From IMG/VR virus record IMGVR_UViG_3300019371_000265, positions 32,001-96,000 of that record: DNA of 64,000 nt. One strand, written 5' to 3'. Under the pieces are notes generated by a model. It ran no database searches, had not been told where the DNA came from, and saw only the letters and a list, made by a program, of their open reading frames with translations. Below are positions 2,837 to 36,285 of this stretch, piece after piece. Within the stretch, counting starts at the first letter, position 1. The number at the start of each line of letters is the position of its first letter. Origin of the DNA: a virus (Duplodnaviria > Caudoviricetes). A program made the position numbers and the translations under genes.

Positions 2837-2862
2837 AAGTCTTGTTTTCCTGCGCCAACAGG
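2837..2862 (-). promoter_or_regulatory. UUGGCG hairpin + AAACAAGACUU motif
   Basis: Minus strand cctg-ttggcg-cagg-a-aaacaagactt. Confidence 0.7.
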
Positions 2863-3168
2863 TTAAATCACTACTGCTTCATCGAAAATATCTGCTACTA
2901 AATCCAACGCATCAAACTGCGCTCTATCGTTCTGGTATATGTATTCAGATCCGCATGTTACCGCCGATTCATGTTTCTTGGCGTACGTTTCGATTAGTTT
3001 AATGACCTTTTCTTTATCAATAACCATATCATGCCTCCAAATTATCGAGTATGTCTTCTTTAAACGCCTTTGCGCTCCCGTACATTTCATCACACTAGGC
3101 ATGACCATGTTCAAAATCTGCATATTCATCTGCACAATCATCTTTAAATTTACAACCATAACAAGCAA
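2863..3168 (-). CDS. Hypothetical protein (true start probably ~3027, MVIDKEK)
   Basis: ORF track; GGAGG upstream of internal ATG. Confidence 0.5.
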   Translation of the reverse strand: MLVMVVNLKMIVQMNMQILNMVMPSVMKCTGAQRRLKKTYSIIWRHDMVIDKEKVIKLIETYAKKHESAVTCGSEYIYQNDRAQFDALDLVADIFDEAVVI

Positions 3169-3213
3169 GTGCCTGAAGTAATTCTACTTCGTTCATATAA
3201 ATATACCTCCATA

Positions 3214-3600
3214 TTAATATCTGTGTTCATCTTCATTTACCTCCAACCGAGCATCACCATTGCACAATGCCCATGTGAGAATACTAATTACCTTTCTGAC
3301 TTCATTTTTAGTAAATACTGCGAATAAAGTATTATCATCAAAATCAACATCACTAGTATCTATTGTAGAAAAATCAGCATGATAGTTTGTAATATTATTT
3401 GGAATATCGTTATATCCACAATCTGTCCCGTATTCAATACATGGACACAAGTACGTTACTCCGTTAAAACCAAACTTACCTTCTCTTTCATAGTATCCGG
3501 TTTTAACCATAATGTTATCATCTAACACATTTGGCTCATATACAGTAAATACCGTACCATCTGGTTCTCTGAGGAACTGTTCTTTATTCATAATTCTCAT
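3214..3600 (-). CDS. Hypothetical phage protein
   Basis: ORF with GAGG RBS. Confidence 0.7.
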   Translation of the reverse strand: MRIMNKEQFLREPDGTVFTVYEPNVLDDNIMVKTGYYEREGKFGFNGVTYLCPCIEYGTDCGYNDIPNNITNYHADFSTIDTSDVDFDDNTLFAVFTKNEVRKVISILTWALCNGDARLEVNEDEHRY

Positions 3601-3647
3601 ATTTAACCTCTAAATTCACTGTAGAATTTCCCTTTTACTGACTCACT

Positions 3648-3887
3648 TTAACAATCCAGTTCATCAATACCCATAAATTCACTTGCAAGGAATCCGTCAA
3701 AAGCATCATATACCTTTTCGACGATCTCTTCACAAATTCCATCTTGTTCCATCTGGTCGGCAAAATCATCATCGCAGTTCTTAGAACCAAAATCTGTTTT
3801 TATATGCTTCTTTGTATACGTACTCCCATCTTCCAAGATTATGGTTTCAATACAACCACCTTTCGCTCTTTCAATCGTATATTTCAT
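3648..3887 (-). CDS. Small acidic hypothetical protein
   Basis: ORF with RBS. Confidence 0.65.
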   Translation of the reverse strand: MKYTIERAKGGCIETIILEDGSTYTKKHIKTDFGSKNCDDDFADQMEQDGICEEIVEKVYDAFDGFLASEFMGIDELDC

Positions 3888-4059
3888 TATCCTATTTTCC
3901 TTTCTTAAAAAATTTGCGAATCTTCATTTTAATTGATCTGAATAAATAGCCTATGCCGTACACTAAGACCACAATCAAGAATAATCCAAGTGCAATTAAT
4001 CCAACAATATCTTCTAATCTAAGAATTAACATTTCAACCTCCTGTTTTTTATTGACTCG

Positions 4060-4839
4060 CTAGTTTGCTACTAAATCTGTCTGATTTGCATTGATTATCA
4101 TTTCGACAACCTTTAACTGCCCTTTGCCTGTTACGAGTGTTTTAGGCTTCACCATGATTTTATCACCTTGCTCAAAGGTAACTTCAATTACTTTAAACCA
4201 ACCTCGTTCTATGTATGTTTGATATGGTGTGTTGTCAGACATAAGAATTTTCTTATCCTTCAACATCTGGAATAGCCTATTTCTACCAATATCAATATTG
4301 TTTTTCTCATGTAACATTTTCGCCATACTACCCATATCAATAGAGTTGTCAGCTTTAGTTACAGTTGTTGCAAAATTTACAAGTGGCTCATTTTCTTCAA
4401 TTACCTTCTTCAATGGCTCCGTAATAACCTCTTCGAATCTTCTAACTGCCACAGCTCTTTCTATATCACCTTCCGCATTTACGATTGCTAAGATGGCAGC
4501 ATCTTTATTCGTCAACGAGTGTCTGATGGTTTCTTCCATTTTGTTAAACGCCTTGATATATTTAAGTTTCCATTCAAGTGCCTTGCTCCCGGTAAATCCC
4601 ATCACCAACAAGGAGAAGCCATCTCTGTTCATCAAGTATTCTGGATATTCACGCCCTCTGTCTGTTTTGTACGTGGACGAAAAGAGCATATTTTTCACGG
4701 CGGAATTTTCCGCTATGAGATTTCTCACCGTTTCAAGCACATCTTTATGCTGTTTTTCGAACCTTTCAGCAACCTCTCTACTACTCACGACGGGTTCCCC
4801 ATTATATAAAACTAAATTAATATCGCTTATTTTAATCAC
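4060..4839 (-). CDS. Rha-domain + ANT/KilAC antirepressor
   Basis: VSSREVAERFEKQHKDVL...YLMNRDGFSLLVMGFTG (Rha); IGRNRLF...PYQxYI...TLVTGKGQ (KilAC). Confidence 0.9.
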   Translation of the reverse strand: MIKISDINLVLYNGEPVVSSREVAERFEKQHKDVLETVRNLIAENSAVKNMLFSSTYKTDRGREYPEYLMNRDGFSLLVMGFTGSKALEWKLKYIKAFNKMEETIRHSLTNKDAAILAIVNAEGDIERAVAVRRFEEVITEPLKKVIEENEPLVNFATTVTKADNSIDMGSMAKMLHEKNNIDIGRNRLFQMLKDKKILMSDNTPYQTYIERGWFKVIEVTFEQGDKIMVKPKTLVTGKGQLKVVEMIINANQTDLVAN

Positions 4840-4896
4840 TCTCCTTTTAATTTTTCTCCGTCAAATCTTGCATTTACTGGTAATTTAAATATAAGC

Positions 4897-5091
4897 CTAA
4901 TTTCCCAATATCCAATCAAGCCACATACAATAGCAATTACTGGCTGATTTCGTTCCTGTGTAGATCTTATCGCAATCCTCTTTTAATCCACATAGTTCAC
5001 AGGTTGCACAATCGCTCACCATATCCGCTATTTCTTCAGGAGATTTAATATTTTTCATACAATTTACCTCACTTAATTTAAATTCCATCAA
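4897..5091 (-). CDS. Small Cys-rich hypothetical protein
   Basis: CxxCxxC cluster; bounded by repeat sites. Confidence 0.55.
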   Translation of the reverse strand: MMEFKLSEVNCMKNIKSPEEIADMVSDCATCELCGLKEDCDKIYTGTKSASNCYCMWLDWILGN

Positions 5092-5205
5092 TCAACAATT
5101 TTACTTATTATTTAATAACAATGTCCTGTGCTCCCACCACCATCACAATGACCTGCCATCTGCCTACTCAGCCTAACTACCATTCTTAAAAAATTAGTAT
5201 ACATT

Positions 5206-6060
5206 TTATACCCATCCTTTCATCAATTCACCATTCTCATAAACTACACCATACTTATTTTTCGGTTTTCTCAGAGCATTACCAATTACTTTAGCCCCAT
5301 CTCCCAAGGAAGCCTGTAATGTTTCCTCACACATAAAGCACGATCTTTTTAATAAAACAGGAGTCTTAAATCCATCTAATATTTCATTCATATTCAGATA
5401 AGTTTGGCAACCACATGAATACGGTGATCCTAACGTTATTCCGAATACCTTTTCAAATGATACAAATACATCTTTTCCATGTTGAATCTCAGATAGCTTA
5501 ATACTATTGAATCCCATTTCATCATAATGTATCAGGCAATTAGAAATGTCGTCTTTTGTATAGAGAAACGGTTTAACAATATTTAAATTTATTCTGATTT
5601 TCTCCTTGTATGGAAGCGATGCGTAAAACTTTTGCCTATCATATTTAGATTTAGTTCTTCTAATTTCATCGGCAACGTCTTCCTGATAGTGCTGCACCGA
5701 CAAATTAATTCCGTCAAGGTGCTCGACCAGCTCCATGAATTTGTCGTATTCGTCGTAGCATATTTTCGGAACCGATGTGGTTACGTAAAGTTTTAGCGAT
5801 GTGTTATCTTTAATTCTCTTAACGCAATCTAATAGTTCATCGAGATATAAACATGGCTCTCCTCCAAGAAACAACACATCATCTAATCCATCTTGATTAT
5901 CAATTATCGTTTGCGCTATTGCATTAACATCTGGCTTCGATATGCTCATTCCTTCATAACATTTATCAATGCAGTGTGCGCAATTATTATCACAGGCACT
6001 TGTAAAATGTACATCAAACGAATTATATATCCCGTCACAGCAATTACATTTAAGTTTCAT
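5206..6060 (-). CDS. Radical SAM protein
   Basis: CDNNCAHC (CxxxCxxC) and GGEP motifs. Confidence 0.9.
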   Translation of the reverse strand: MKLKCNCCDGIYNSFDVHFTSACDNNCAHCIDKCYEGMSISKPDVNAIAQTIIDNQDGLDDVLFLGGEPCLYLDELLDCVKRIKDNTSLKLYVTTSVPKICYDEYDKFMELVEHLDGINLSVQHYQEDVADEIRRTKSKYDRQKFYASLPYKEKIRINLNIVKPFLYTKDDISNCLIHYDEMGFNSIKLSEIQHGKDVFVSFEKVFGITLGSPYSCGCQTYLNMNEILDGFKTPVLLKRSCFMCEETLQASLGDGAKVIGNALRKPKNKYGVVYENGELMKGWV

Positions 6061-6114
6061 TTTCTCTCCTTCTCCATCAAATTTTGGATTGACTTACTTA
6101 TTTGGACTTTTGGT

Positions 6115-6306
6115 TTAAAGTCTAAAGAATTCCCGTTTAAACCCGTTTGGATTTTTTGTTCCAAATACTTTTTCTCCATCAACCAGTACCTCATCTACGG
6201 AATAAAACATATCTCCAAATTCCCTTAATGCAACAAGGATTAAATCTTCTACGTCTCCTTTTGTATCATTTGTAGTAAGTGGTATTTTAATAACCATTTC
6301 TTTCAT
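6115..6306 (-). CDS. Hypothetical protein
   Basis: ORF downstream of operator-flanked promoter. Confidence 0.6.
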   Translation of the reverse strand: MKEMVIKIPLTTNDTKGDVEDLILVALREFGDMFYSVDEVLVDGEKVFGTKNPNGFKREFFRL

Positions 6307-6345
6307 ATTATACCTTCTTTCTCAAAGTAATTTCTAATTTGATAA

Positions 6346-6414
6346 ATTTTATTTCAATCTATATTTATATATTACTCCTCTTAAATAGCAATGTCAAGCA
6401 TTTTATTTCAATCT
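6346..6414 (-). promoter_or_regulatory. SigA promoter flanked by two AGATTGAAATAAAAT boxes
   Basis: TTGACA(6397-6392)-17-TAATAT; boxes 6346-6360 and 6400-6414. Confidence 0.75.
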
Positions 6415-6993
6415 ATTAAGCAACTCATCTAAGCGACTCTGACTGGCGGATATAGATGCATGCAGCGACTCAATCTCTTTCAATCTCTCACGTTCTTCCT
6501 TCTCTTTTAAGAGTTCTTCGTTGACTCTATAGAAGTCATCTTCATAATCCCAGTATGAATGTTCGTCTCCTTGCCACCTATAATCCATCAATAAGCATGT
6601 CTTACTTAGCCTGAGAGCTGGAGCTTGCCAATCGCAATCATGACCACAGCAGTCTTTGTCTTCTCTGTAATCTTCGTCTCCTAGTTTACACCAACAATAG
6701 CCGTCACCAGGTCTTAAATCAATAAAAATTTCAAACTCATATGTACAATTTGATAAACTAACCAAAATTTTTCCAAGTGATAGATAATCTTTTTCGTCAT
6801 TTACAATATACCTAATGTCATAAAATTCAGACCCGCATAAATCGCTTAAGAATTCACTATCTGGATTTTTTTCCAATGATTGTTGTAGTGTTGCCAATAT
6901 AAAAGGAATATCTATTTCATCATCGTGTTTATCGTGTTCATAAGTTAATTCTTTTATAACCTTGTTAATAAAATTGCTTACATTATTTTCCAC
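6403..6993 (-). CDS. Acidic Cys-containing hypothetical protein
   Basis: ORF with GGGGA RBS. Confidence 0.7.
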   Translation of the reverse strand: MENNVSNFINKVIKELTYEHDKHDDEIDIPFILATLQQSLEKNPDSEFLSDLCGSEFYDIRYIVNDEKDYLSLGKILVSLSNCTYEFEIFIDLRPGDGYCWCKLGDEDYREDKDCCGHDCDWQAPALRLSKTCLLMDYRWQGDEHSYWDYEDDFYRVNEELLKEKEERERLKEIESLHASISASQSRLDELLNRLK

Positions 6994-7306
6994 AATTAAT
7001 TCCCCTTCTCAGTCAAATTTTCGATTGACTTACTTATTCAAATTTCAATCTTGTTTATTACATTTAAAATGCTCACTGTCCAAAATAGTATCTAATAATT
7101 CTTCAAAAAAACTCATCTCCATCACCTCGATAATATTCGAAATCACAATTATGATTACTACATTTTAGGCTAGTAGACGTATCAATGACTCCCCAATGTC
7201 TTATTTTAACTTTTTTTGTGGTATTCCAGTTTCTGGGTTTATATACTGTTCTTTGTCAAACCCATGTTCTTGCGTTACCAGTAATTTTTCTTTACATACA
7301 GGACAA

Positions 7307-7504
7307 TTATAATTTCTTTCGCCCATTCTCCACCTCCACTACAGTAAGACCATCTACTGCATAGCCGCCACGATATCCCTCCAGCAGTACGCATTCTGTA
7401 CCACATAAGTTCCATGATTCACTACGGACTTCAAATATTTTCCCTTTATTACTCTCTGCAACCCTGTATTTATCATTCATAACAACTCTATCTCCAATTT
7501 TCAT
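7307..7504 (-). CDS. Small hypothetical protein (KOW/SH3-like N-terminus)
   Basis: MKIGDRV start; RBS. Confidence 0.6.
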   Translation of the reverse strand: MKIGDRVVMNDKYRVAESNKGKIFEVRSESWNLCGTECVLLEGYRGGYAVDGLTVVEVENGRKKL

Positions 7505-7565
7505 AATTCCACCTTTCTCCCGATTCTCCGGGAAATTTTAGTATCAAATATTTGTTTTACGGTAT

Positions 7566-7991
7566 TTATTTTGATTTAACATACATATTGATTATTGGCA
7601 CTGCGTTGCGCGAAGAAATAAAAGAATGATTTCTGTCTCCCTCTGGCAATTCAAAAGAATCTATATATGCTTGCGAAGCTTCTAAATTATCAAAGTCATA
7701 TTCTTCACAGTTAAAACCGAGCCACACTGGAGAACCAAATAGCCACCCATCAGCACCAACATGATATTTTCCACCAATCATCGAGTTATATCTAATACCT
7801 TCCCACGGCTTCTTCTCGCAGACCGAATATTCCCATTTGTCAACCATTTTCTTTGCCATTACAAAATAATTTTTAGTGATAGCAATTACCTTTAATGGTT
7901 TCTTCCAATCATTGATCTTTATCAGATCTCCAACTTTTACAGAGTCCAGAAGTTCTCTAGTGATTTCCGTAAAACATTCATAATCTCCCAT
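7566..7991 (-). CDS. Hypothetical protein
   Basis: ORF with AAGGAG RBS. Confidence 0.7.
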   Translation of the reverse strand: MGDYECFTEITRELLDSVKVGDLIKINDWKKPLKVIAITKNYFVMAKKMVDKWEYSVCEKKPWEGIRYNSMIGGKYHVGADGWLFGSPVWLGFNCEEYDFDNLEASQAYIDSFELPEGDRNHSFISSRNAVPIINMYVKSK

Positions 7992-8433
7992 TTAATCTTT
8001 CTCCTTATAAATTTTCTTAACTTCTACTCGTCAATATTCTTATCATACAAATATTCTAAAATCTGAAATTGGTCTGGAACATTTGTAACGCATAAATTCG
8101 AACATCTTACGAGATCAATATCGTTGTATCGCTTTTTGTATATTTCCCATCTTTCATCATCGCATAAAATTAATTGATCAAGTTCCAATCCTTTTTCGTT
8201 TGAGGAGAATGTATTGGAATCACTTTAGTTCCATCGTTAAATATTGCAAACGGATTCCAACTTCCAAATCTACATTCCACAATTTCTTCTTTGTTGTTAT
8301 TGCAGAACCACTCAAACAAATTATTTGTCAGTTTTGAATTATAACCCATAAATCCAATTACTAAAGATTTTGGCTCCGTTTCACATCCTATAATACACGT
8401 TGAAATACTATCACTACCCTTCTTTTATACTAA

Positions 8434-8721: not shown

Positions 8722-8773
8722 TTATTTACCCCCCCACCTCCGTTTCTCCATCAATCTTTGATTCTACTGCGTA

Positions 8774-9470: not shown

Positions 9471-9842
9471 TCAACTTTCGCATTCTTTTACAAATGTTAA
9501 TCCATAATCTTCTTCGTCTTTCTGCATTGCGTCTCCTAGACTTTTTGCTTCTGTAATATCGCAAACACATCTCACGTCTTCAGATCTACGACTTAATTCA
9601 CTAATTAAATTATCTGCACACCATGTTCCATCATTGTAATGAAAATTAACTTGTTCATTATCCCAATGCTCTGGAACCGACAACACAGTTCTAACAGTAA
9701 AATTGACCACTACGGTTTTAGATCTTATTACGCAATCATCTTTATGTTGTTCTCCTAATAATCTACCACAATAAAAACACCTATCCGGTTCACCAGCTGG
9801 TCTCGTGGAAGATTCTGTTACTGTCCAATCATTTCTAATCAT
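9471..9842 (-). CDS. Hypothetical phage protein (Cys/His motif)
   Basis: CFYC...HxxxC. Confidence 0.65.
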   Translation of the reverse strand: MIRNDWTVTESSTRPAGEPDRCFYCGRLLGEQHKDDCVIRSKTVVVNFTVRTVLSVPEHWDNEQVNFHYNDGTWCADNLISELSRRSEDVRCVCDITEAKSLGDAMQKDEEDYGLTFVKECES

Positions 9843-9880
9843 TGCTCATTCTCCTTTCATATCTCCGTCAAATTGGGAAT

Positions 9881-11137: not shown

Positions 11138-11359
11138 TCAACCAATCTTTTCAACTGTTACTTTGAATTGTTCTCCAAGTTCAACTTTTCTGCCTAAAAT
11201 TTCACATATCATTCCTTCTGCGTAATATGATGATTCTCCATCACTCAAGTAAAATATTTTTTCATAACAATCATAATCATAATCTGAAGATCTTTTCCAA
11301 CATAACTTGCCTTCAACTGTTTTCTTTTCCATTAATTTCACCTCCTGCAAAATCAGCAA
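11138..11359 (-). CDS. Hypothetical protein (likely start MEKK)
   Basis: ORF bounded by repeat sites. Confidence 0.6.
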   Translation of the reverse strand: MLILQEVKLMEKKTVEGKLCWKRSSDYDYDCYEKIFYLSDGESSYYAEGMICEILGRKVELGEQFKVTVEKIG

Positions 11360-12181: not shown

Positions 12182-12295
12182 ACCTATTACCTATCCCTTC
12201 TCCATCAAATACGAATTTTACATCATCTGTTAACGTGCTACATCTTTCGCATTATCTCTCCTTTTAGTTTGCAACATTTTATTTCAAATTATCAG

Positions 12296-12367
12296 CAGGG
12301 CTAGTTGGATTTGAACCAACGAATGCAGGAGTCAAAGTCCTGTGCCTTACCGCTTGGCGATAGCCCT
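12296..12367 (-). tRNA. tRNA-Gln (TTG)
   Basis: Cloverleaf: acceptor agggcta/tagccct, anticodon arm cagga-ctTTGac-tcctg, T-arm gttgg-ttcaaat-ccaac. Confidence 0.95.
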
Positions 12368-12435: not shown

Positions 12436-12575
12436 GCAGTATTCCTTACTGCGGTCTTAAGCATTTCTAAATGCGGAGCCTCCTTTAATGGGTGACACCT
12501 ATGTTTATTCTTTATTGCTTAAGTCTTGTTTAAATCCCCAGGAGTGCGCCAACACGTTTGTACTGGGGATTATTT
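12436..12575 (+). ncRNA. Putative ~135-nt regulatory sRNA
   Basis: Own promoter; stems gcagta/tactgc, cttaagca/tgcttaag, atccccag/ctggggat + T-rich tail; no ORF. Confidence 0.6.
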
Positions 12576-12872: not shown

Positions 12873-12932
12873 TGTATTTTTTCGAACACTGTAAATTTTA
12901 TTTCAAACTATTAAGATGGCAACAGGAGTTGC

Positions 12933-13979
12933 CTATTTATAATAGATGCTGCTCATGATATATGGTCTATAAATTTTTCTAACATCAGTGCCTTTCAATT
13001 TATCTCCAAATTTTTCAGATATTTCTTGTAAAATCTTACACCATTCATCATTTTTATAATCATCGTATTCTACAAATATTTTGCAGAAATTAGTATCACT
13101 ATAATTGTACAATTGTCTTCGCGCAAAGTTTACGAATCCGGATTTATGAAGTAAATCTATGTTTATGTCATCATATTTAGATCCGTATGTTCCATTAATC
13201 GAAAGTAAATGTGGAATTATATCCCGAACATCTTTTGAAATAATTTTTTGTAGAACCACCTTCTTATCTTCATTGAAAGTTTCTATATACTTTTGTAAGT
13301 CCATAGTTTCATTGATTTTGCTTTTAATTAATAATCCATGAACTGACATTAATCTTAATTGATCCAAGAGAACCTTATCTTTTGATACCCTTACTTTAAT
13401 ATATACATTGTCATTAATATATCCATTTATATATGAAAAAAGTAGTTCAGATCCATGAAAGACCCTATTTTTAAATCGAATTGTATTCTCGTCAAAATTC
13501 ACATCGGTTAATTTTATATTCGCAAATTCTTTTGCGTTCCGTATACCCTCAAAAAATCCATACACCAGCATACCATAATAATTTTTATTGTATTCAATGT
13601 CTTTAATAATGTTACGTATGTCTTCCTTGTACAGTATCTTAATATCCTTCTTCTCAATTAGCGTGTTAATCAACATCTTTTGCGATAAGGCATCAAATTC
13701 AGCGAATGGATTTATAAAAGTGTATCCATTATTCACACACCATTCAAAAAATTGGTTCAGGTAACTGATGTTTTCCATGAGATATTGCATGCTCTTAGTT
13801 TTACCACACATATCTTCGATGATTAAATCAACATATTCTTTCACCTTTAAATTAAACAAATCCTTCTCATAAATATATGGCTTCATTAAAAAGGCCTTCT
13901 GTTTATCAGTATATTTCTTGTAATTACAAAAATCTTCTATCATTTTCTTATAGTCTTCTACCGTATATTTAGTACTCAT
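12933..13979 (-). CDS. MrpR/YopR-like lytic repressor (tyrosine-recombinase fold, catalytic motifs degenerate)
   Basis: FFEGIRxxxEFxNIKLTDVNFDENTI; LHKSG in place of HxxR; own promoter with operator box. Confidence 0.65.
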   Translation of the reverse strand: MSTKYTVEDYKKMIEDFCNYKKYTDKQKAFLMKPYIYEKDLFNLKVKEYVDLIIEDMCGKTKSMQYLMENISYLNQFFEWCVNNGYTFINPFAEFDALSQKMLINTLIEKKDIKILYKEDIRNIIKDIEYNKNYYGMLVYGFFEGIRNAKEFANIKLTDVNFDENTIRFKNRVFHGSELLFSYINGYINDNVYIKVRVSKDKVLLDQLRLMSVHGLLIKSKINETMDLQKYIETFNEDKKVVLQKIISKDVRDIIPHLLSINGTYGSKYDDINIDLLHKSGFVNFARRQLYNYSDTNFCKIFVEYDDYKNDEWCKILQEISEKFGDKLKGTDVRKIYRPYIMSSIYYK

Positions 13980-14008: not shown

Positions 14009-14051
14009 ATCATATCACAATAATAGGAAAAGGTCAATTTTATTTCAATCT
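14009..14051 (-). promoter_or_regulatory. Promoter of MrpR-like gene with operator abutting -35
   Basis: TTGACC-17-TATGAT; box 14037-14051. Confidence 0.7.
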
Positions 14052-14475
14052 ACATTGCATAAGAAAATGCAAATGAAAACTGTAGTTTAATCGCGTCGCA
14101 TATACGATTTATAACATTTCCATCTTTAATTTCTCCAATCTTACGATATAGACATTCCTTGGGTATAGAATCTGGGCTTTCAATGAGTAAAATACTATCG
14201 CTTTTCAATCCATTACAATCATCTGATGGCATATACACATGAACTGGCGACATCTTGTTTATTTTGGATGAAATCGGATAAATATTTACTTGTGAAGAAA
14301 ATTTATTAAACGTATCGTTAGACATTACCAAAACCGGTCTTCTTCCATACTGCTTGCTGCTCTTGATCCTGTCTTCTGTTTTAGGAATATAGGCATCCCA
14401 AATTTCCCCTCCTAATGGAGTAGGTATCCTCCTATAATTGTCGTCAATTCTATTTTCATTGTGCATATTTCTCAC
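14050..14475 (-). CDS. PemK/MazF-family endoribonuclease toxin (no adjacent MazE)
   Basis: GEIW...QYGRRPVLVMSNDTFNK...PISSK...GLKSDS. Confidence 0.85.
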   Translation of the reverse strand: MRNMHNENRIDDNYRRIPTPLGGEIWDAYIPKTEDRIKSSKQYGRRPVLVMSNDTFNKFSSQVNIYPISSKINKMSPVHVYMPSDDCNGLKSDSILLIESPDSIPKECLYRKIGEIKDGNVINRICDAIKLQFSFAFSYAM

Positions 14476-14549: not shown

Positions 14550-14575
14550 AAGTCCTGTTTGCTCCGCCAAGAGCA
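14550..14575 (-). promoter_or_regulatory. UUGGCG hairpin + AAACAGGACUU motif in mazF leader
   Basis: tgctc-ttggcg-gagca-aacaggactt. Confidence 0.7.
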
Positions 14576-14598: not shown

Positions 14599-14644
14599 AG
14601 TATAGCACATAAAAATATTAATGTCAACAATTTTATTTCAATCT
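14599..14644 (-). promoter_or_regulatory. mazF promoter with operator box
   Basis: TTGACA-17-TATACT, extended -10; box 14630-14644. Confidence 0.8.
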
Positions 14645-14645
14645 A

Positions 14646-15581
14646 TTACTTTATTTTTTCTTCGATGGATTTCATGATGTCATTGATAAAATCAATATGG
14701 GATTCTGCATCACAATCGGCGTTTTTAAGTCCAAATTTATATGCGTCTGCGAGTGCATTGCGTAAGTCATTCATGTCAAGTGATACTACATTGCTGTTTG
14801 AACTATTTACGATTTCATTATCTCCCTCTGCATATTCTACGAAGAATTTTCCCATATCTTCCAAGTATTCGTTCACTCTTTCACGAGTAATTCCAACATA
14901 CGCCATTGTTTGTTCGAGAGTACCATGCCCGAACATTGCGCTTACAATCATAAGTGCTCTTGGATCATTTGGGTGTAAATCAATTAAAGTTTTGCCAAGA
15001 AATTTTCGTGTACTATGCGTGTTTACGTTATAGGTTACTCCAACGCTTTTTGCAGCTTTCTTCATGTTCTGTCCACATTGTTTGAGAGTAAATAAGTCAC
15101 CTGGATGAGTATTGCCTCTATTTAGAAAAACATATTGATCATATTCTTCCATTGGCTTGATATCAAACGCCGAGCAATATAACCTTATTGCATTTCTCAC
15201 AGCTTCATTGATGTATGGACTTGCAAATTTATCCGTCTTTTCTTCTTTTATTGTAAGAATTTCCTTTCTAAAGTGACCATTTGGAAGGAAAAATCTTCTC
15301 CAAGTAAAAAGTCTAGTATCTCCGGCTCTTCGTCCCATATTGCAACCAATTACAAACCATAGATAATTTTGCCACATTTTGTGTTCTTTAAAAAATTTAA
15401 GTATATTTCTTGCATCTTCAATAGTAAATGCATAAACTTCAGCTTGTTTGCCTGGCTGCTTATTTAGTACTTTTCCATTTTTAGCATATAACATTTGATT
15501 ATCCACTACAATATAATCATATCCCATTTCTTCATCAAATTTCACATCGTACTCTTTTTTCTTATATGTTATCTTGCTCAT
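14646..15581 (-). CDS. Tyrosine recombinase/integrase (catalytic set intact)
   Basis: GRRAGD (R), KEEKT (K), HSTRK (HxxR), FGH...TMAY (H, Y); start MSKIT after AAGGAG. Confidence 0.88.
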   Translation of the reverse strand: MSKITYKKKEYDVKFDEEMGYDYIVVDNQMLYAKNGKVLNKQPGKQAEVYAFTIEDARNILKFFKEHKMWQNYLWFVIGCNMGRRAGDTRLFTWRRFFLPNGHFRKEILTIKEEKTDKFASPYINEAVRNAIRLYCSAFDIKPMEEYDQYVFLNRGNTHPGDLFTLKQCGQNMKKAAKSVGVTYNVNTHSTRKFLGKTLIDLHPNDPRALMIVSAMFGHGTLEQTMAYVGITRERVNEYLEDMGKFFVEYAEGDNEIVNSSNSNVVSLDMNDLRNALADAYKFGLKNADCDAESHIDFINDIMKSIEEKIK

Positions 15582-15621
15582 GACTGCTCCTTTCTGCGTC
15601 AAATGTCACATTGACTGACTG

Positions 15622-22523: not shown

Positions 22524-22828
22524 CCCCGTGTTAAGCTGTTTTAGCTACCAAGCACTCTCCAAACATTTCCATATACTCTACTTCCGTCATGATGCAAGCT
22601 GCCAATTCTGTTCTATAAATTACGTATCTGATTCCTCTTGAAATAAATGTTTCTGGTTTTGTATTCTTCATGTCTGATCTCTCCCATTCTGATTGTTTAA
22701 ATCTTGTTTTTACTCTGCCATGAGTTTATAAATAGTTTCGTTTAATTCATTAAATCCGCAGAATACCATTTCACCTGTAGTAGTATTAGTAAGACAATAT
22801 CCGTATGTATATGTAGTAATTGAGAATC

Positions 22829-24124: not shown

Positions 24125-24195
24125 ATTATATTCCTCTCTGACTTAAAAGTCCGTAAAACTTACTATTGAGTGTGTTTTATCATTTTTACGGTTCC

Positions 24196-24786
24196 TTAAA
24201 CTAATAGCAATGCTTCTCTTCTGTTTGTGTCTTTGAGATTGTGAAAATTCGGCTTCATATTGCCTATATAAGTTGAACCAATCGGAGCAGTACAATAACC
24301 TAAATTAATCCAGCCTTCTGGCATTTCCGTCATAACTTCGATTTTTCTTTTTTCTGCAAATTCCCTAACTTTTCTAACCTTTTCTTCTGTAGCTGTTTCA
24401 CCTACGGCACTGGAGAATAATCTAAATGTTTCATCAATTAATTTTTCCTTGTTTTCTTCAGTTGCTTCATACATCCAGTCAAAATTTATAACTGCTCTTT
24501 TGCCATCATCGGAACGCTTACTTTGAGGATTGTACATAATCCAACATCTTCCTTCTGTATCTGTTACATAGGTTGAAATACACCAATATGTTTCTAATAC
24601 TTTGTCGGTCATTCCAGATTTATACCATAATACAGGGAGTGCGTGACTTCCTCCACAATTGGTACACAATGATAGTTCAATTGTAAGTGTTTCACCTTTA
24701 GCGTTTGGTTCTGCAAATTTATACCACCATACTTTTTCCGCTGACTGTTCAACCGTGTATTCTTTTCTCATGATAATTACCTCCAT
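24196..24786 (-). CDS. Hypothetical protein
   Basis: ORF; GGAGG RBS before MRKE. Confidence 0.7.
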   Translation of the reverse strand: MEVIIMRKEYTVEQSAEKVWWYKFAEPNAKGETLTIELSLCTNCGGSHALPVLWYKSGMTDKVLETYWCISTYVTDTEGRCWIMYNPQSKRSDDGKRAVINFDWMYEATEENKEKLIDETFRLFSSAVGETATEEKVRKVREFAEKRKIEVMTEMPEGWINLGYCTAPIGSTYIGNMKPNFHNLKDTNRREALLLV

Positions 24787-25224: not shown

Positions 25225-26013
25225 TTATTCACTATATGACCATTTCTGGACGTATTTCACCGCACCATCATATGCCGCTGGATTTAAGTCTTGCCAATGA
25301 CTACCACACTCAAAACGTGCTTTTAAGCCGTTCCATAAGTTAATGAAGTACATTCTTGAATTGTCTTTGTATTCCTGTGAATGTGCACCACCCAAAAGGA
25401 ATCCGACTCTATCTTTTGCAAGACGGTGAATTTTGTTCTGCTGAACCGTTGTGAGCGTCATGTTTGACATTACTTTGTCAAGCCGTGTTTTCGTCTGTTC
25501 GAATATTTCAAGCTGTTTTTCAATCATGGATTCCATGTTATTGATTTGAACGCCTTGTACTTTTACAATATCCTGCAATTTTGCAATCTGTCCGGATATT
25601 CCCATTTTGTCATAAAATTCTTGTTTCTTCTCTTCTGTTCCCATGAAATGCTCATGTAGAACCTTTTGTGCTTCCATTTGATAACGAATCAGTTTATTAT
25701 AAGCCTCTGGCTGTTCTTCTTCCATTCTATCTGTTAGCGTGATTTTAGCTAGCCATAAAGTAACAACCTGTTCTTTAATGAAAATCTGATCTCGACTTAC
25801 ATCTCTGTTTCCTTCTTTTTGAACAATCGCCAATGAGCGACAGTTGGATTTCAAAAGTTTTTCCTTTTGAATATTTTCGACCTGCTTTCTTGCCTGACCT
25901 TCAGATAATCCTAAGTCTAAACAAGTTTTCTTTACCGCAAGCCACACCTGACCATCTTCGTCCATCACTCCAAGTAATGTGTCTTCATAAAATTGGATTT
26001 CTTTTACTTCCAT
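25225..26013 (-). CDS. Antirepressor (P22 Ant N-terminal-like + ORF6C C-terminal domain)
   Basis: FYEDTL...WLAVKKTCLDLGL...LWLAKI; LTTVQQ..I...V...LGG...LW..LK.RF. Confidence 0.75.
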   Translation of the reverse strand: MEVKEIQFYEDTLLGVMDEDGQVWLAVKKTCLDLGLSEGQARKQVENIQKEKLLKSNCRSLAIVQKEGNRDVSRDQIFIKEQVVTLWLAKITLTDRMEEEQPEAYNKLIRYQMEAQKVLHEHFMGTEEKKQEFYDKMGISGQIAKLQDIVKVQGVQINNMESMIEKQLEIFEQTKTRLDKVMSNMTLTTVQQNKIHRLAKDRVGFLLGGAHSQEYKDNSRMYFINLWNGLKARFECGSHWQDLNPAAYDGAVKYVQKWSYSE

Positions 26014-29743: not shown

Positions 29744-29769
29744 TGTAAAATCCTCCTTGCTTTATTAAG

Positions 29770-30476: not shown

Positions 30477-30640
30477 TGTCATTGTGCTTGTCGTGCCGTT
30501 CAATCAGGGATTACATGTGGGAACAAATGTTTCGGATTGAGTTTCCGGTGAAATGTGATAGAATGATTTTGACGTTATCTATACGCTTCACATTTGTTCT
30601 GGGAGTGGCAGGAAGTTTGAGGCTTCCCGCCGTTTGGTGA

Positions 30641-30742
30641 TTAACTTATGTATTCCAGATACTCGGATTCCGTTGCAAATAGTTGGTAGCTGTTATTGAC
30701 GTAACCCATGTAACCGGAAGCAACATAGTAGCCTTTAGGCAT
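30641..30742 (-). CDS. 33-aa peptide MPKGYYVASGYMGYVNNSYQLFATESEYLEYIS (not in track)
   Basis: GGGAGGTGA RBS, ATG, clean stop. Confidence 0.65.
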   Translation of the reverse strand: MPKGYYVASGYMGYVNNSYQLFATESEYLEYIS

Positions 30743-30890
30743 TCATATCACCTCCCATATGTAATTTTGGTTGAGTCTGACAGTTGGTAGCTGTTGGACT
30801 CTTTTCCGTTCTATGGTGGAAACAAGCGTTTCACTTGTTGATTGGTCTATTTGCTTTGATGCTACAGGCTCGCCCTGATAGACCGTTATT

Positions 30891-31049
30891 TCATTCTTCC
30901 CAAATACCGCTTATACTGTCTATGGTGTAGCCTTTCTTTTTGAAATGAGATTGCACCTTCTTTTGCGTACACTCTTGGCTACAGTAAAACCTATGATACG
31001 TTGGCTCACCTTCTGAAACAGTTGTCACTGTGTAATAATATCTTGTCAT
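30891..31049 (-). CDS. 52-aa hypothetical protein (not in track)
   Basis: AAGGAGG RBS; MTRYYYTV... Confidence 0.55.
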   Translation of the reverse strand: MTRYYYTVTTVSEGEPTYHRFYCSQECTQKKVQSHFKKKGYTIDSISGIWEE

Positions 31050-31132
31050 TTTAAATCCCTCCTTATTTAATTTGTAATAGCCTGTGTGGGAATTGCACCC
31101 ACCCCCATGATGTTCTACGGGTAAGACTTGAG

Positions 31133-31321
31133 TTAAGGCTTAATGTTTAGGTATGGCTTAATGTTGATTGTGTCGGAAATGTCGGACAGTTTGGAACAAA
31201 GAACGTTTTCTATTTCCTCATTGATGTTTACAGGAAATGCGAGTGATTTGAATACCTTCTTGCACTTCTTTACAATCTCGTCTTGGATTGCTTGCGGTAG
31301 CTGACATACGTATACTGCCAT
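31133..31321 (-). CDS. Hypothetical protein
   Basis: AAGGAGG RBS. Confidence 0.65.
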   Translation of the reverse strand: MAVYVCQLPQAIQDEIVKKCKKVFKSLAFPVNINEEIENVLCSKLSDISDTINIKPYLNIKP

Positions 31322-31334
31322 GATGGAAACCTCC

Positions 31335-31628
31335 TTAACATGTTTTTAAAAACACTCTTTCGGAAAATTTGTATTTTCCTGTTTCGTCGTTTAAAGGATA
31401 GTAAAACACTTGACATTCCCCGTCTGTTTCAATTAATCGCTTACGTGCAATTTTCTTAATCTCATTAAGGCTGTCGGCATAACCTAGAGTTTCTTTCCCG
31501 TCATATAAATCTACGACCTTAAATTTCTTATTTTCCATATGCAATCCTCCTTTAATAAGTGATTGTGAAAATAAATAATCAACACCTATGTAGCAATCGC
31601 CACCTTTTAGCCTCAACCTAAATGACAC
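31335..31628 (-). CDS. Hypothetical protein (likely start MENKK)
   Basis: AGGAGG before internal ATG. Confidence 0.6.
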   Translation of the reverse strand: MSFRLRLKGGDCYIGVDYLFSQSLIKGGLHMENKKFKVVDLYDGKETLGYADSLNEIKKIARKRLIETDGECQVFYYPLNDETGKYKFSERVFLKTC

Positions 31629-31789
31629 AATGATTTAGGAATGCAAATTTTAAATACAAGATTTTGTATTTACGTCCTAGCAGTTTATAAGGCTTCACCG
31701 TCCGCAAGTTTCATATTGATTATTTAATTTTGAAATGCCTAGTCAGGACTTGACACCTGACTGAACGTTTGGCGTTTAGGCTTGTAGTT

Positions 31790-32017
31790 CTATTCAACAA
31801 TTTCTGTAAAATAATTTTCCAGTACAACTTTATCGCCTATTTGTAATTGGTCTTTGCTTACTGTTGAAATACCTCTAACAGAATTATCTTTCTTGCTGAA
31901 TGTATTAGATTCCATTTCCATAATTTCATTAATAGTAATTGTCCTCATATGATTACCGCCTTTCGATTGACTTGTTTGTGTGTATTTGTATCTCTTAACT
32001 TGATATAAGTATACCAT
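31790..32017 (-). CDS. First gene of leftward early operon (likely start MRTIT)
   Basis: Downstream of promoter at 32008-32036. Confidence 0.55.
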   Translation of the reverse strand: MVYLYQVKRYKYTQTSQSKGGNHMRTITINEIMEMESNTFSKKDNSVRGISTVSKDQLQIGDKVVLENYFTEIVE

Positions 32018-32036
32018 ATTGCTTTACTTTAGTCAA
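32008..32036 (-). promoter_or_regulatory. Major leftward SigA promoter
   Basis: TTGACT-17-TATACT, extended -10; divergent from XRE gene; repeated TACTTT boxes nearby. Confidence 0.75.
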
Positions 32037-32123
32037 TACTTTTATTGTACTTTATAAAAACAATTTACTTTTGTATTCTGATATGATATACTGAAAGACT
32101 ACCAACGAAAGGAGTAATATACC

Positions 32124-32330
32124 ATGAATGAATTAGCATGTATTGTGAGTGACTATATTGACCGTAAAGGCATTAAGAAGCAACACATAGCGGATAGTAT
32201 TGGATTGACCAAACAAGGCTTATATGGCTTAATGAGGAAGAAACAATTCGGAGTGGCTGAAGCTAATCGGATATTGAATGCTATTGACTGTCAATTGATG
32301 ATTGGCATAGTACCAATGGACAAAGAGTAA
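32124..32330 (+). CDS. XRE-family HTH regulator (Cro/CI-like)
   Basis: KGIKKQHIADSIGLTKQGLY HTH; AAGGAG RBS. Confidence 0.8.
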   Translation: MNELACIVSDYIDRKGIKKQHIADSIGLTKQGLYGLMRKKQFGVAEANRILNAIDCQLMIGIVPMDKE

Positions 32331-32371
32331 TGTTTGACTTATATGGCTGTCATATGGTGCGTCTGACGAAC

Positions 32372-32424
32372 AGAACATTTGTTTGTCTGGGATAATAATA
32401 TCATAGTGGAAATGTGATTGTCAA
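32372..32424 (-). promoter_or_regulatory. LexA(DinR)-like box with leftward promoter
   Basis: AGAACATTTGTTTG 32372-32385; TTGACA-18-TATTAT 32424-32395. Confidence 0.55.
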
Positions 32425-32758
32425 TAGAGGGAAATAAAACGCTTAATATCTATAAATGGATATTATTTATTGATGAATGAAACTATAATATGTGGTTATA
32501 GATTGATGTATCTATATAAGATATGGTTATGAGTTGGGATTGAGCGTGGAATGGTGATGGTGAAATGGATCTGAATGAATATATAAGATGTATTTATGTG
32601 TGACTGGATTATTATAAGTTATGATTATGATTAGATTACGTTGTGATTACAACGGAAATGGTGATTCATAGTGATGTAATATAGATATGACTAGTGGAAT
32701 ATAGTTCACAATTGAACTATTATGGTGCAGATGTGTCATACTATATTACATATAGCAT

Positions 32759-32864
32759 TGTGGATATCTTTGTGGATTATTTGTTGATATGTGGATAAGT
32801 ATGTGGATAAGTATATATTATACAGCGTATAGTATTGTGGATAGCTAGGAATAATTGTGGATAA
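32759..32864. repeat. DnaA-box cluster
   Basis: Perfect TGTGGATAA at 32790, 32802, 32856; near matches at 32759, 32771, 32782, 32836; all co-oriented. Confidence 0.75.
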
Positions 32865-33856
32865 CTTTAATTCAGTTGTACACAACCAAATATATCCGAA
32901 CGATTTTATATGTCTGACAACTCGCTCCATTATCAATCCACCTGACACAATATTTTGACCACTATATCAGGAATTACTACCAATATTATCACCTGATTTA
33001 AGCCATTCACAACGTTCTTTTATGATGGAAAACCACGTTACCATGAAACAATGCCCATAGGTGGGGGATATTTTACATTTGAACCGGACTAATACCAGGT
33101 CAAAAGTCGTCTATCTATTCCACGCACACCTCACCTATAATTTTCCATTATTGTCAGATAACTCACCATCAAATTTACCCAAATACTTCGGATATACCTT
33201 CGAGCAGTACCCATATTTAAGCCAAAAAATGAATTGTGTCTCACCTCACACAATTTAAAATGACCACTCAAACACCCAACAAATCCCATAGATAAGCCAG
33301 ATTCTCGAACCCGACCACTTTTTACATTATCCACCAGATCTGCTAAATAATTAATTCAGAAATATTACTTCTCATACACCCAACAAACGTAACTACAACA
33401 AGCGTTTCTTCCATGTTTTAGATCATAATTTCAACCTCTCTCCCGAACCCTGGCTATTTTAATTTTAATACAACTCACTTCACCAAGTTAAACTAAATTG
33501 TACACAAAATGATACACAATATTACTGAATCATGCCTCCAGCATCAAGCACTTCCTATATATAAGCCAAAAATAAATGTGTTAAAATTTATACATCTACA
33601 GACACCTCTCAGCAGCTATATATATCACCCATATAAATCTAATATCCCATCTAATTACCACTCTCTCATTACCATAATACTCACAAAGCGTTATATGACA
33701 CGTAAATCGTCTTAACCTCTCATTGGCACATTTATCCACTGAATCTATTTTGAACGGAATATGAGTATCATATGACGGTCAAACAACTATATTCTTCTTA
33801 TGTCTATATAACGCCAGTTCAGCAGCAAGAATATAGGTGTAAAAATTAATTTTAAT

Positions 33857-33929
33857 AGTTTGAAATAAAATGTTGACATGGTGATATATGGGTGCTATAC
33901 TATGGATAGGTAATAGATGGAAATAAAAT
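33857..33929 (+). promoter_or_regulatory. Major rightward SigA promoter flanked by two operator boxes
   Basis: AGTTTGAAATAAAAT 33857; TTGACA-17-TATACT 33873-33901; AGATGGAAATAAAAT 33915. Confidence 0.8.
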
Positions 33930-34019
33930 TTAGCAAGGAGGTATGGGTATGATTACATTCATAGATAACAGCATCTACAGACAGGTACTCTACTGAAAAA
34001 TATTCAACTATACATATAA

Positions 34020-34051
34020 GGTATTTGGCGATACCAGTTAAAACAGGACTT
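34020..34051 (+). promoter_or_regulatory. UUGGCG hairpin + AAACAGGACUU motif
   Basis: ggtat-ttggcg-atacc-agtta-aaacaggactt. Confidence 0.7.
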
Positions 34052-34225
34052 GAAGTTTGTATCAGATTAATAATCCAGATAAAATGTAACAGAAAATTAT
34101 GTAAGGAAAATATAGATGATAAAGGTGTTTTTCTGCGAAGATTTAACGTGAGTTAAGTCGAAGCAATAAGTACTCTTTTTATATATATTCTTTCTTTACA
34201 GGGGACTGTAAAAATTAATGGTGAA

Positions 34226-34268
34226 AATGTCACTGTCTAACACCAAAATTACCTCAGACAGTGACATT
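34226..34268. repeat. 13-bp perfect inverted repeat upstream of putative initiator
   Basis: aatgtcactgtct...agacagtgacatt. Confidence 0.7.
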
Positions 34269-34440
34269 AAAACGTACTATGGAAATTTTATAAGGCAAAG
34301 GAGATGGAATTTTTATTGAAGAAAAAAGTAAGGACAAAGGATAATCTAGTTTCAGTCCTAGATATTTGTAGCTATGAGTGGAAGTTTAAATTATTACAAA
34401 AGGAATACACGTCTCCTATTAATGGGAAGGTGAATGAGCC

Positions 34441-35244
34441 TTGCAGTTCGTAAAAGTACCAAGGGAACTAATTTATGCAAGCACAGTTAGTGAGAAGCGA
34501 GCTTCATGTTTCTCCTACCTGATATTTAATTCTACTCTTCAAGACACGGTTGCTTACAGCGCAAAACAAATAATAACGTGGTGTGGATTTAAGCCAAACT
34601 GGAATCGCAGTAAAACCAAAGCAAACATATACGATAAATTCTTAGACTGTATGACCTGGATATACCAAAATGGATACATCTTAAATTTTGAAGATACTGA
34701 ATTTACCGGAAACAACTACTGTTACTCACTTCTCAATACAGATAAAATGTTTCCATCAGATAATTTTGGAATAATTTATGATTTTGAAATTGAGAAAATA
34801 AAGAATTACAAATCAAAATACAGGACTCTCACTCAAAGCACTATATTGCTTATACTCTCATACATAAGAGTTAATCTATGGAAGCGGAGCGCTAATTTAG
34901 AATTTCAGGAAGAAAAGTTAAAAAAAGAAAAGCCTGAAATATGCAATAAACAAATATTGGAAATATCAAATGACATTGGGATTTCAGAAAGATTAATTTC
35001 TCGCTCCATAGATATTTTGGTCGAGTTAGACATTATTGACATGTCACCTATGCCACGATTCCAAGACGAACTGGGGAACTGGCACACTGAAGATAGCATA
35101 TTTGTGAATAAATATAAGTTCATAAGAAACGAACATGGAGTAATTATAAAAGATAACTCCTATGATTATGAAAGTGAATTAAGTAATGGAATCGATTTTA
35201 TTAGAAAACGAAAATATGTTAGTAGAAAATTTTATCAAAAATAA
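34441..35244 (+). CDS. Putative replication initiator / winged-helix DNA-binding protein
   Basis: ISNDIGISERLISRSIDILVELDII wHTH; near DnaA boxes and inverted repeat. Confidence 0.55.
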   Translation: MQFVKVPRELIYASTVSEKRASCFSYLIFNSTLQDTVAYSAKQIITWCGFKPNWNRSKTKANIYDKFLDCMTWIYQNGYILNFEDTEFTGNNYCYSLLNTDKMFPSDNFGIIYDFEIEKIKNYKSKYRTLTQSTILLILSYIRVNLWKRSANLEFQEEKLKKEKPEICNKQILEISNDIGISERLISRSIDILVELDIIDMSPMPRFQDELGNWHTEDSIFVNKYKFIRNEHGVIIKDNSYDYESELSNGIDFIRKRKYVSRKFYQK

Positions 35245-35263
35245 TAAGGAGAAAATACATACA

Positions 35264-35464
35264 ATGACAAAAACTAAGAAGACCACACCAAGCCCAGTTC
35301 CATCAAGAGAGGAATTTCACAGAGAATTTGCAGGATTTGTATCAGAAAGAGACTTTGAATCAGACGAGCGTTATGGATATCGTACATATGGATACTCTTA
35401 TCCAACACTAACAGAGTATAAAAACCGTAAATCACGCAACAAATCACAGGGAGGAAATAAATAA
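35264..35464 (+). CDS. Hypothetical protein
   Basis: AAGGAG RBS before MTKTKK. Confidence 0.55.
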   Translation: MTKTKKTTPSPVPSREEFHREFAGFVSERDFESDERYGYRTYGYSYPTLTEYKNRKSRNKSQGGNK

Positions 35465-35465
35465 T

Positions 35466-35771
35466 ATGACTACTATTGAACACAACCAGGACAACAATAA
35501 TGAAAACTGTATTGAATTTCTTACAAACATGCGTAAAATTTCATTCACATTCACAGCTCGTAAGTGGATCAACAAGGTAAAGAAGTTAAAAGAGGAACAT
35601 CCAGATGACATTGACTATGTGGAGAATCCTGATGGCAGTATCTTCGGTCACGCACCTATAAAATATTTTAAGTTGTCGGCTCCACGAAAAGTTGAATTAT
35701 CTGAAGAACAGAAAATTGAGCGTGCTGCCAGAATGAGAACTATTGCAAAAAATAGAATTGATAACAAATAA
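35466..35771 (+). CDS. Conserved-looking phage hypothetical protein
   Basis: ENCIEF...KWINKVKKL...ENPDGSI..H.P. Confidence 0.7.
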   Translation: MTTIEHNQDNNNENCIEFLTNMRKISFTFTARKWINKVKKLKEEHPDDIDYVENPDGSIFGHAPIKYFKLSAPRKVELSEEQKIERAARMRTIAKNRIDNK

Positions 35772-35915
35772 CATTGGCATGTTGAAAACTACAAGATGAG
35801 TATTCAAATCAAGCATCAATTTCGGCTCAAACATATGAGCATGAACATTTTATCACTAACTACTTAAAACCGTAAATCGGTACAAATTTTATGAGAATAT
35901 AAAGGAGAATATGAA

Positions 35916-36236
35916 ATGCCAAATTATAAGAAATTAACAAGTGTAGAGGTATCTGTAAATGAGAATTATGCAATTATCGCAGAAGTAAATAATGATGAAG
36001 TAGATACAAATAAATTCCACTGTGATTTATGGATTCAGGATACGGAAGCTGGTTTAAGAATCCTGATCAAAGAAAATGTAATCGTAAACTCATCTCCCGC
36101 TTCTATGTGCGACAAGGTTGCAGGATATCTTGAAACTCTGATTAACAATGGATATTTCAGCGATGATGTCAAGACTATGGAAAACTTTATCAGCTACGTC
36201 GAAAAATTAAAAGACACTGTTAATAGTTTGAAATAA
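35916..36236 (+). CDS. Hypothetical protein
   Basis: AAGGAG RBS; stop inside operator-like box 36225-36239. Confidence 0.7.
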   Translation: MPNYKKLTSVEVSVNENYAIIAEVNNDEVDTNKFHCDLWIQDTEAGLRILIKENVIVNSSPASMCDKVAGYLETLINNGYFSDDVKTMENFISYVEKLKDTVNSLK

Positions 36237-36255
36237 AATTGATCGATTACATAAA

Positions 36256-36285
36256 AGGCATTGGCGTGCCTGTAGAACAAGACTT
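36256..36285 (+). promoter_or_regulatory. UUGGCG hairpin + GAACAAGACUU motif upstream of RNAP gene
   Basis: aggca-ttggcg-tgcct-gta-gaacaagactt. Confidence 0.7.

Follow-up and report, generated by a model that had tools for sequence, protein, structure and literature searches.

The early transcripts of phage lambda carry nut sites, each made up of a boxA and a boxB hairpin and used by N together with NusA, NusB, S10 and NusG. To our knowledge, no system of this type is known in Clostridia, and nothing like the nut/N layer has been described for SPbeta-type phages or for the phages of Clostridia. What is known to us of gene control in SPbeta-type phages comes only from Bacillus and consists of MrpR with its SPBRE repeats, the arbitrium system and the late polymerase YonO, by which the late-gene arm of SPbeta is transcribed. 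Here we describe a hairpin-box element that recurs in a 126-kb provirus record (IMGVR_UViG_3300019371_000265), of which bases 32001-96000, a stretch of 64,000 nucleotides (nt), form the window analysed; positions are those of the window unless the provirus is named. Judged by its genes, the provirus belongs to the SPbeta-like prophages and its host is an uncultured bacterium of the gut Clostridia, because the open reading frame (ORF) at 36342-39335 matches a YonO-type single-chain RNA polymerase (997 amino acids (aa), 37% identity to SPbeta YonO; phrog_8308) and the nearest genome relatives of this enzyme are metagenome-assembled genomes of Lachnospiraceae and other Clostridia. Transcription is divergent, with leftward genes starting at about 33000 and rightward ones at about 34000, where the GC skew flips as well. 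The element is a real, previously undescribed and lineage-restricted control signal that probably acts as RNA.

The element consists of a hairpin of 3-5 base pairs (bp) with the 6-nt loop UUGGCG, followed by the 10-nt box AACARGACUU; the spacer between hairpin and box is 0-7 nt long, or 13 nt in a nested copy. Each copy has a different stem sequence with the pairing kept, and the loop and the box are conserved. The preliminary description of the window had listed five exact copies and a sixth, degenerate one, with coordinates and stems that all proved correct on re-checking. The strict bipartite pattern (loop, 3-25 nt, box) finds exactly these five matches, compared with none in 100 shuffles. 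A scan of the whole provirus with a relaxed descriptor (loop NUGGCN, stem of at least 3 bp, box with at most two changes) recovered the sixth copy and two more beyond the window, for a total of eight (six in the window, two outside), every one of them on the sense strand. The same descriptor returned 16 weak matches in 2.7 Mb of related phage DNA, none of which combines the exact loop with at most one mismatch in the box.

The pairing of the stems stands out against several controls. Hairpins presenting the loop hexamer are enriched in the provirus, where 9 of 45 hexamers are enclosed by 4 or more stem pairs (P = 6e-7). Among nine distinct copies, 84% of the stem cells are paired, compared with 47% in shuffles, and the covariation score of 1.03 (0.25 when shuffled) was reached by none of 500 shuffles. 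The three inner pairs form in all nine, the loop-closing pair occurs in all four Watson-Crick types, and the signal is lost when the 3' partners are slid out of register. On this comparative evidence the stem is under selection for pairing, and the earlier claims of stem covariation, of a conserved loop and box and of confinement to the sense strand are borne out in full. A comparison with Rfam, also suggested in the preliminary description, found no matching family, whether at the gathering threshold over the window or in a permissive scan around the copies, where the matches were at chance level only.

Only two other records carry the element. One is a 120-kb IMG/VR contig (3300048929_000179; hereafter G001), which is about 80-92% identical to the provirus over about 34 kb and holds orthologs of seven of the eight copies; the other is a 42-kb Logan contig (L339; 13.3 kb examined) with the copies numbered c4 and c5 (Table 1). 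In the orthologous copies the loop and the stems are nearly unchanged, and the box varies at its seventh and ninth positions and tolerates a one-base deletion. In c6 of G001 and c4 of L339 a stem C has become U, so that G.U replaces G-C on the sense strand; the other strand would have an A.C mismatch. With a covariance model trained on 14 copies, each of the 14 reaches at least 32.9 bits, compared with 20.2 bits for the best other match in 0.8 Mb; the match after that, with 18.4 bits, is G001's degenerate ortholog of c2. The searches of relatives covered the loci around YonO homologs, including four whole contigs, and neither the model nor the descriptor found copies in these four YonO phage contigs (YonO 67-79% identical) or in the other relatives scanned. 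An exact-pattern scan of IMG/VR gave mostly single matches expected by chance, from which a stem filter left one true relative. Among public sequencing runs, the only one listed as containing the sequence is a DNA run, perhaps of the source sample itself, and no RNA run is listed.

The presence of the element does not follow the type of phage RNA polymerase. The polymerase locus of G001 (L220:5913-11213(-)) has four ORFs of 467, 554, 380 and 256 aa in place of the 997-aa YonO; the 554-aa ORF matches phrog_25339 over its full length and the N-terminal two thirds of phrog_8308, and tblastn of the provirus YonO against G001 gave no match at 1e-5. In sequence, this looks like a YonO-type polymerase that is split and has diverged strongly, and that has replaced the single-chain enzyme while the rest of the module stayed conserved. 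Beside it, beta-CASP and ClpP are encoded by genes 95-96% identical to those of the provirus. The element is thus present with a distant enzyme in G001 and absent from phages with 67-79% identical YonO, and therefore its reader must be either the polymerase of the host or some small protein that these phages share.

Where in the transcripts does the element lie? The hairpin follows an upstream stop codon by 0-1 nt in c1, c2 and c7 and overlaps one in c6, while c5 and c4 lie 19 and 23 nt past a stop codon. From the box to the next start codon there are 27-370 nt, and untranslated stretches of 252-370 nt begin at c4, c2 and c7. The late-gene arm has no copy at all. The preliminary description was right in placing c3 in the mazF leader, c4 in the leader that follows the strong rightward promoter and c5 just ahead of the polymerase gene, from which 56 nt separate it. 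Between c4 and the downstream copy of a promoter-associated repeat (see below) there is a leader ORF of 15-17 codons with a good ribosome-binding site (33944-33997(+)), which is kept in G001 and L339.

Table 1. Copies of the hairpin-box element and other features of the provirus (window coordinates unless the provirus is named).
Feature	Position	Strand	Form	Context
c1	2837..2862	-	4-bp hairpin, exact loop, 2-nt spacer, exact box	Hairpin immediately behind the stop of a small ORF; HAD (RNA-repair type) gene 61 nt downstream; identical ortholog in G001
c2	12521..12568	-	3-bp inner hairpin with exact loop within a 6-bp outer helix, then box	About 270 nt past a perfect sigma-A promoter, 150 nt before the tRNA-Gln gene; G001 ortholog retains both helices, box 1 nt shorter
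c3	14550..14575	-	5-bp hairpin, box directly adjoining	About 18 nt past the predicted start of the mazF-like transcript; ortholog in G001
c4	34020..34051	+	5-bp hairpin, 7-nt spacer, box	About 110 nt past the start of the strong rightward promoter, 23 nt past the leader ORF; orthologs in G001 and L339
c5	36256..36285	+	5-bp hairpin, 4-nt spacer, box	17 nt past an operator-like repeat, 56 nt before the YonO-type polymerase gene; orthologs in G001 and L339
c6 (degenerate)	22699..22725	-	4-bp hairpin, loop altered at first and last base, one box change	Overlaps the stop codon of a small ORF
c7 (outside window)	provirus 24188-24213	-	Found with the relaxed descriptor	Directly after a stop codon
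c8 (outside window)	provirus 9524-9554	-	Found with the relaxed descriptor	Within a ligase ORF
Intrinsic terminator	39580..39609	+	Sole clear terminator that follows a copy	Between the polymerase and beta-CASP genes
18-bp repeat pair	33854..33929	+	Flanks TTGACA-17-TGnTATACT	Promoter of the c4 transcript
18-bp repeat, window sites	6346-6417, 12276-12293, 12895-12912, 14037-14054, 14630-14647	-
18-bp repeat, window site	36222-36239	+
18-bp repeat, provirus sites	provirus 11275-11344, 25627-25698	-
Tyrosine-recombinase-like ORFs (two)	12933-13979, 14646-15602
101-aa ORF	35466..35771	+	No Pfam family	Between c4 and c5; speculative candidate reader of the element
TTTGAC-type junction word (examples)	1905-1932, 4860-4896, 6075-6114, 9850-9880, 21826-21790			Left arm

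Several copies stand close to a second and unrelated sequence, an 18-bp AT-rich repeat (AATAGWTKGAAATAAAAT) present in 14 copies at no more than two mismatches. At four promoters, of the sigma-A type and near consensus, the repeat is paired: one copy overlaps the -35 and a second follows 52-58 bp downstream. In SPbeta, MrpR binds the SPBRE repeat at the promoters of yonP/yonO, aimR and others (PMC10516654). Since the paired position at promoters is the expected place and form, the 18-bp repeat is likely, from its sequence and placement, to be the operator of an MrpR-like repressor (a dead tyrosine-recombinase-type protein) and thus an analogue of SPBRE of unrelated sequence. In IMG/VR and the metagenome collection, the operator pattern occurs in several copies in G001 only. 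The element lies downstream of an operator-like repeat by 17 nt (c5), 55 nt (c3), 91 nt (c4) and 327 nt (c2), and four of eight sites that close to the operator were reached by 0.1% of 20000 random intergenic placements. The copies c7, c8 and c1 lie 1.4-3.5 kb past other operator-promoters with no operator between, and c6 has none upstream. There is thus roughly one copy of the element per transcription unit.

The element resembles SPBRE in being a repeated regulatory element spread over the early region with a copy before the polymerase operon. SPBRE, bound by MrpR/YopR in SPbeta (PMC10516654), is however a double-stranded DNA operator that needs no hairpin, whereas the phage element lies downstream of the separate 18-bp operator candidate. 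An identity with SPBRE was rejected on the grounds that the SPbeta sequence is unrelated, that the arms of the element vary and that only its asymmetric centre is conserved; the element was likewise rejected as the operator itself, as it sits downstream of the 18-bp repeat.

Homology to G001 is continuous through promoter, leader and element at c1, c2, c4 and c5 and stops 0-50 nt past the box, with different cargo genes beyond. At these sites the elements mark the promoter-side edge of exchangeable modules.

The preliminary description had offered two readings, a nut-like signal and the target of a trans-acting small RNA. The former is still the best single guess, although unproven; the latter is not supported. 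An antisense target of the P4 CI or P1 C4 type was rejected, as no complement of the box, even with G.U pairs allowed, is kept in both the provirus and G001. Besides the strand opposite the box copies, the G.U-tolerant complement has one exact match (provirus 113053), which is antisense to the late genes and has no complementary counterpart in G001.

Three observations suggest a nut-like role in the early transcripts that the host polymerase makes: copies lie in early, operator-controlled units, the order of hairpin and then box is that of rrn leaders, and stem changes form G.U pairs on the sense strand; taking the analysis as a whole, we put the probability of this role at roughly one in three (about 0.35). 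In early transcripts of the host polymerase, the hairpin would present its fixed 6-nt loop, followed by the single-stranded 10-nt box, and the two together would bind a factor specific for sequence and structure. This factor would be loaded onto the transcribing host RNA polymerase or would modify it, as at nut sites and rrn leaders, and transcription would then continue across untranslated stretches and past terminators, among them that behind the polymerase gene. We infer action as RNA rather than as single-stranded DNA, a protein reader and an outcome in antitermination. The element looks like an RNA-type site and not a duplex DNA site for a dimer, because its stems vary while its asymmetric loop and box are fixed, and a dimer site would conserve the arms. 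Two independent C-to-U changes among the orthologs argue in the same direction, since they pair as G.U on the sense strand only, and the variable spacer (0-7 nt, 13 in c2) would be tolerable for a flexible RNA and odd for a promoter. The reading is also supported by the position of both c4 and c5 upstream of the terminator at 39580 and by the long untranslated stretches after c4, c2 and c7.

The likeness to lambda lies in the bipartite design, a loop-recognised small hairpin plus a single-stranded box, and in the placement in early transcripts past repressor-controlled promoters, about one per unit and at variable distance from the promoter. The differences are considerable. The phage element has its hairpin first and its box on the 3' side, and the box is unrelated to what we take to be the boxA consensus; the stem has 3-5 bp, and its loop is of 6 nt or, if a U.G pair closes it, of four, whereas lambda has a 5-bp stem and a GNRA-like, purine-rich pentaloop. 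There are eight copies in the phage compared with two in lambda, and no N-like protein was seen among the 26 window proteins scanned. The rrn leader signals, a boxB-like hairpin and then boxA, are similar in order, in the short 4-bp hairpin and in their presumed purpose of guarding long untranslated RNA from termination. In one Lachnospiraceae rrn leader, a 4-bp hairpin lies about 17 nt before a stretch that presumably is boxA-like, going by what we take to be the Firmicute consensus. The phage box, on the other hand, matches neither that assumed consensus nor the stretch in this leader, which may not be that of the host. A match of the box to another part of this leader was treated as chance: in the genome concerned, of the Mediterraneibacter type (G006; L367:401-418), an 18-nt stretch about 50 nt before 16S in all five rrn leaders shares 7 nt with the box, and this identity is genome-specific, without conservation across 60 other genomes of the family.

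Several observations weigh against a nut-like role. Only one clear intrinsic terminator lies downstream of the copies, namely that at 39580, which follows c4 and c5; in the left arm, the sense-strand terminators past c1, c2 and c3 are weak and hardly exceed chance, while no element precedes the strongest leftward ones (25219, 28499 and 27015). Scans of 26 window proteins with Pfam and/or PHROGs revealed no antiterminator family (N, Q, NusG/LoaP-like, ANTAR, CAT-RBD); these proteins are mainly from ORFs beside copies and ORFs shared with G001, a minority of the window ORFs, and most of which matched no family. The box matches no boxA consensus known to us, and c8 lies within a coding region. 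Finally, the strand bias fits transcription and replication alike, because gene orientation and GC skew flip together at about 33000. Small basic ORFs without family assignment are present in the window.

Alternatively, the element could be a signal for RNA processing or stability, which we regard as possible, if somewhat unlikely. A nuclease would cut in or near the box, the hairpin would be the 3' end of the upstream message or a recognition handle, and the fates of neighbouring cistrons would thereby be uncoupled; the enzyme might be a MazF-like toxin, a beta-CASP RNase or a host RNase. Such a role would suit the four copies within 1 nt of an upstream stop codon and the two that lie 19-23 nt past one, as well as the sense-strand G.U pairs, which fit RNA. 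Among the phage genes there are also one for a beta-CASP RNase and one for a MazF/PemK endoribonuclease, in whose leader c3 lies. There is a parallel in T7, whose R sites are RNase III sites between early genes: like them, the phage copies are recurrent structured signals on the sense strand between cistrons and before an RNA polymerase gene, although the T7 sites are irregular hairpins of about 50-60 nt and the phage element has a 3-5 bp stem, a conserved loop and a single-stranded box. A stem that short would be a poor barrier to exonucleases, however, and MazF enzymes need a short single-stranded word and no hairpin. As for the beta-CASP enzyme, none is found among the called genes of the 13-kb L339 locus that bears c4 and c5, and the phage contig G004 has one (68% identity) yet no element. 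What else could read an RNA site of this kind? A phage RNA-binding regulator might set translation or mRNA fate across the early regulon and leave RNA polymerase untouched, a reading that we consider unlikely. One candidate is the 101-aa protein whose ORF lies between c4 and c5: its identity is 91% in L339 and 98% in G001, compared with about 88% for the flanking DNA of G001, tblastn found no homolog in four element-free YonO phage contigs, and the protein is predicted to have a basic C-terminal helix and a beta-alpha-beta-beta-alpha core. Its co-occurrence with the element in three close relatives may, on the other hand, reflect common descent only, and distant homologs (56-63% identity) occur in contigs without the box, where two hairpins with the same loop are doubtful, one of them apparently lying inside a small reverse-strand ORF. 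The family comprises about 40 unnamed metagenome proteins, and a fold search with a model of the protein gave no match with E below 0.1, hence no significant structural neighbour. As reader of the element the 101-aa protein is speculative, co-occurrence among close kin being no evidence of binding, and a box-to-start distance of 27-370 nt makes a simple block of the ribosome site unlikely.

Two further readings move away from transcript control by the host polymerase. The hairpin and box might act as a single-stranded DNA signal on the lagging-strand template, with a role of the priming, recombination or packaging type; this is quite unlikely in our estimate. All copies would lie on that template if forks left from about 33000, where GC skew and gene direction flip, homology to G001 breaks just past the box at four copies, and the phage has three tyrosine-recombinase-like genes. 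The association with promoters and operators would not be expected of replication signals, though, the breakpoints are at no fixed position and so do not mark a crossover site, the features of attC are absent and G.T in DNA is less favourable than G.U in RNA. Very improbable is a promoter or recognition site for the YonO-type RNA polymerase, similar to the hairpin promoters of the N4 virion polymerase. It is true that c5 directly precedes the polymerase gene and that the YonO promoter was still undefined in a 2017 paper (PMC5467207). But G001 combines near-identical elements with a split, distant enzyme, phages with 67-79% identical YonO are without the element, no copy lies in the late-gene arm and the spacing of hairpin and box is variable.

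Other identities were considered and set aside. The box and the bases that follow it in c1 and c5 match the 5' strand of the anticodon stem plus the anticodon loop of tRNA-Gln at 11 of 12 positions (12335-12346(-)), and the 6-nt loop is complementary to tRNA-Gln positions 9-14; the gene (12295-12367) is one of the two tRNAs that alone were found in the Rfam scan of the window. No tRNA-Gln gene occurs near c2 of G001 or in the other stretches of G001 scanned, and since G001 keeps the elements all the same, the likeness is probably a coincidence. A T-box was rejected: although a GCCA 3' end could pair with the loop and a Gln codon is present in the box, only 6-13 nt separate loop and box, and there are no switch helices. 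The element is no integron attC-like site either, given a stem of only 3-5 bp, the lack of core sites and the variable breakpoints 0-50 nt past the box. Nor does it extend further, as a third conserved patch 3' of the box (AATCC) is not significant (its count is equalled in 55% of random intergenic sets) and minimum-free-energy folds give no constant second helix downstream, varying between copies. It is not coding sequence, for the frame is not constant across copies, and as a reverse-strand terminator its stems are too weak, c5 alone passing a simple scan.

Two further observations concern other parts of the genome. Strong intrinsic terminators (stems of 8-14 bp plus a U-run) are numerous between the late genes on the sense strand, at 46563-62503(+) in the window (for example 47651, 48493, 53227, 57255 and 60645) and on to provirus position 122350. 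They would fit late transcription by a terminator-insensitive YonO-type enzyme from which the host polymerase is excluded. Many leftward intergenic spacers carry a short word of the type TTTGAC-GG/AG-GA just 5' of the ribosome-binding site, which may be a standardised junction or translation-initiation module, separate from the hairpin-box element.

A fuller form of the nut-like reading can be drawn, although we hold it to be doubtful: a processive antitermination or anti-polarity system of an unknown type in SPbeta-type phages of Clostridia, in which each early unit would have its hairpin-box RNA site, recognised by host Nus factors or by a small protein of the phage (possibly the 101-aa ORF), and the host polymerase would thereby be enabled to complete the early programme, including the YonO-type polymerase gene. 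The present reach of the element is narrow, since it is confined to three uncultured phages that are related to each other, and its importance is limited accordingly for the time being. The variation of the stems provides built-in compensatory-mutation tests of function, and even a processing signal or a single-stranded DNA signal would still be a new and well-defined motif. The element is a compact candidate of about 30 nt between repressor-controlled promoters and early genes, among them the polymerase gene, and if it modifies transcription or the fate of transcripts, it would offer a small, portable RNA tag for synthetic biology in Firmicutes and add a second layer of control to SPbeta-type phages.

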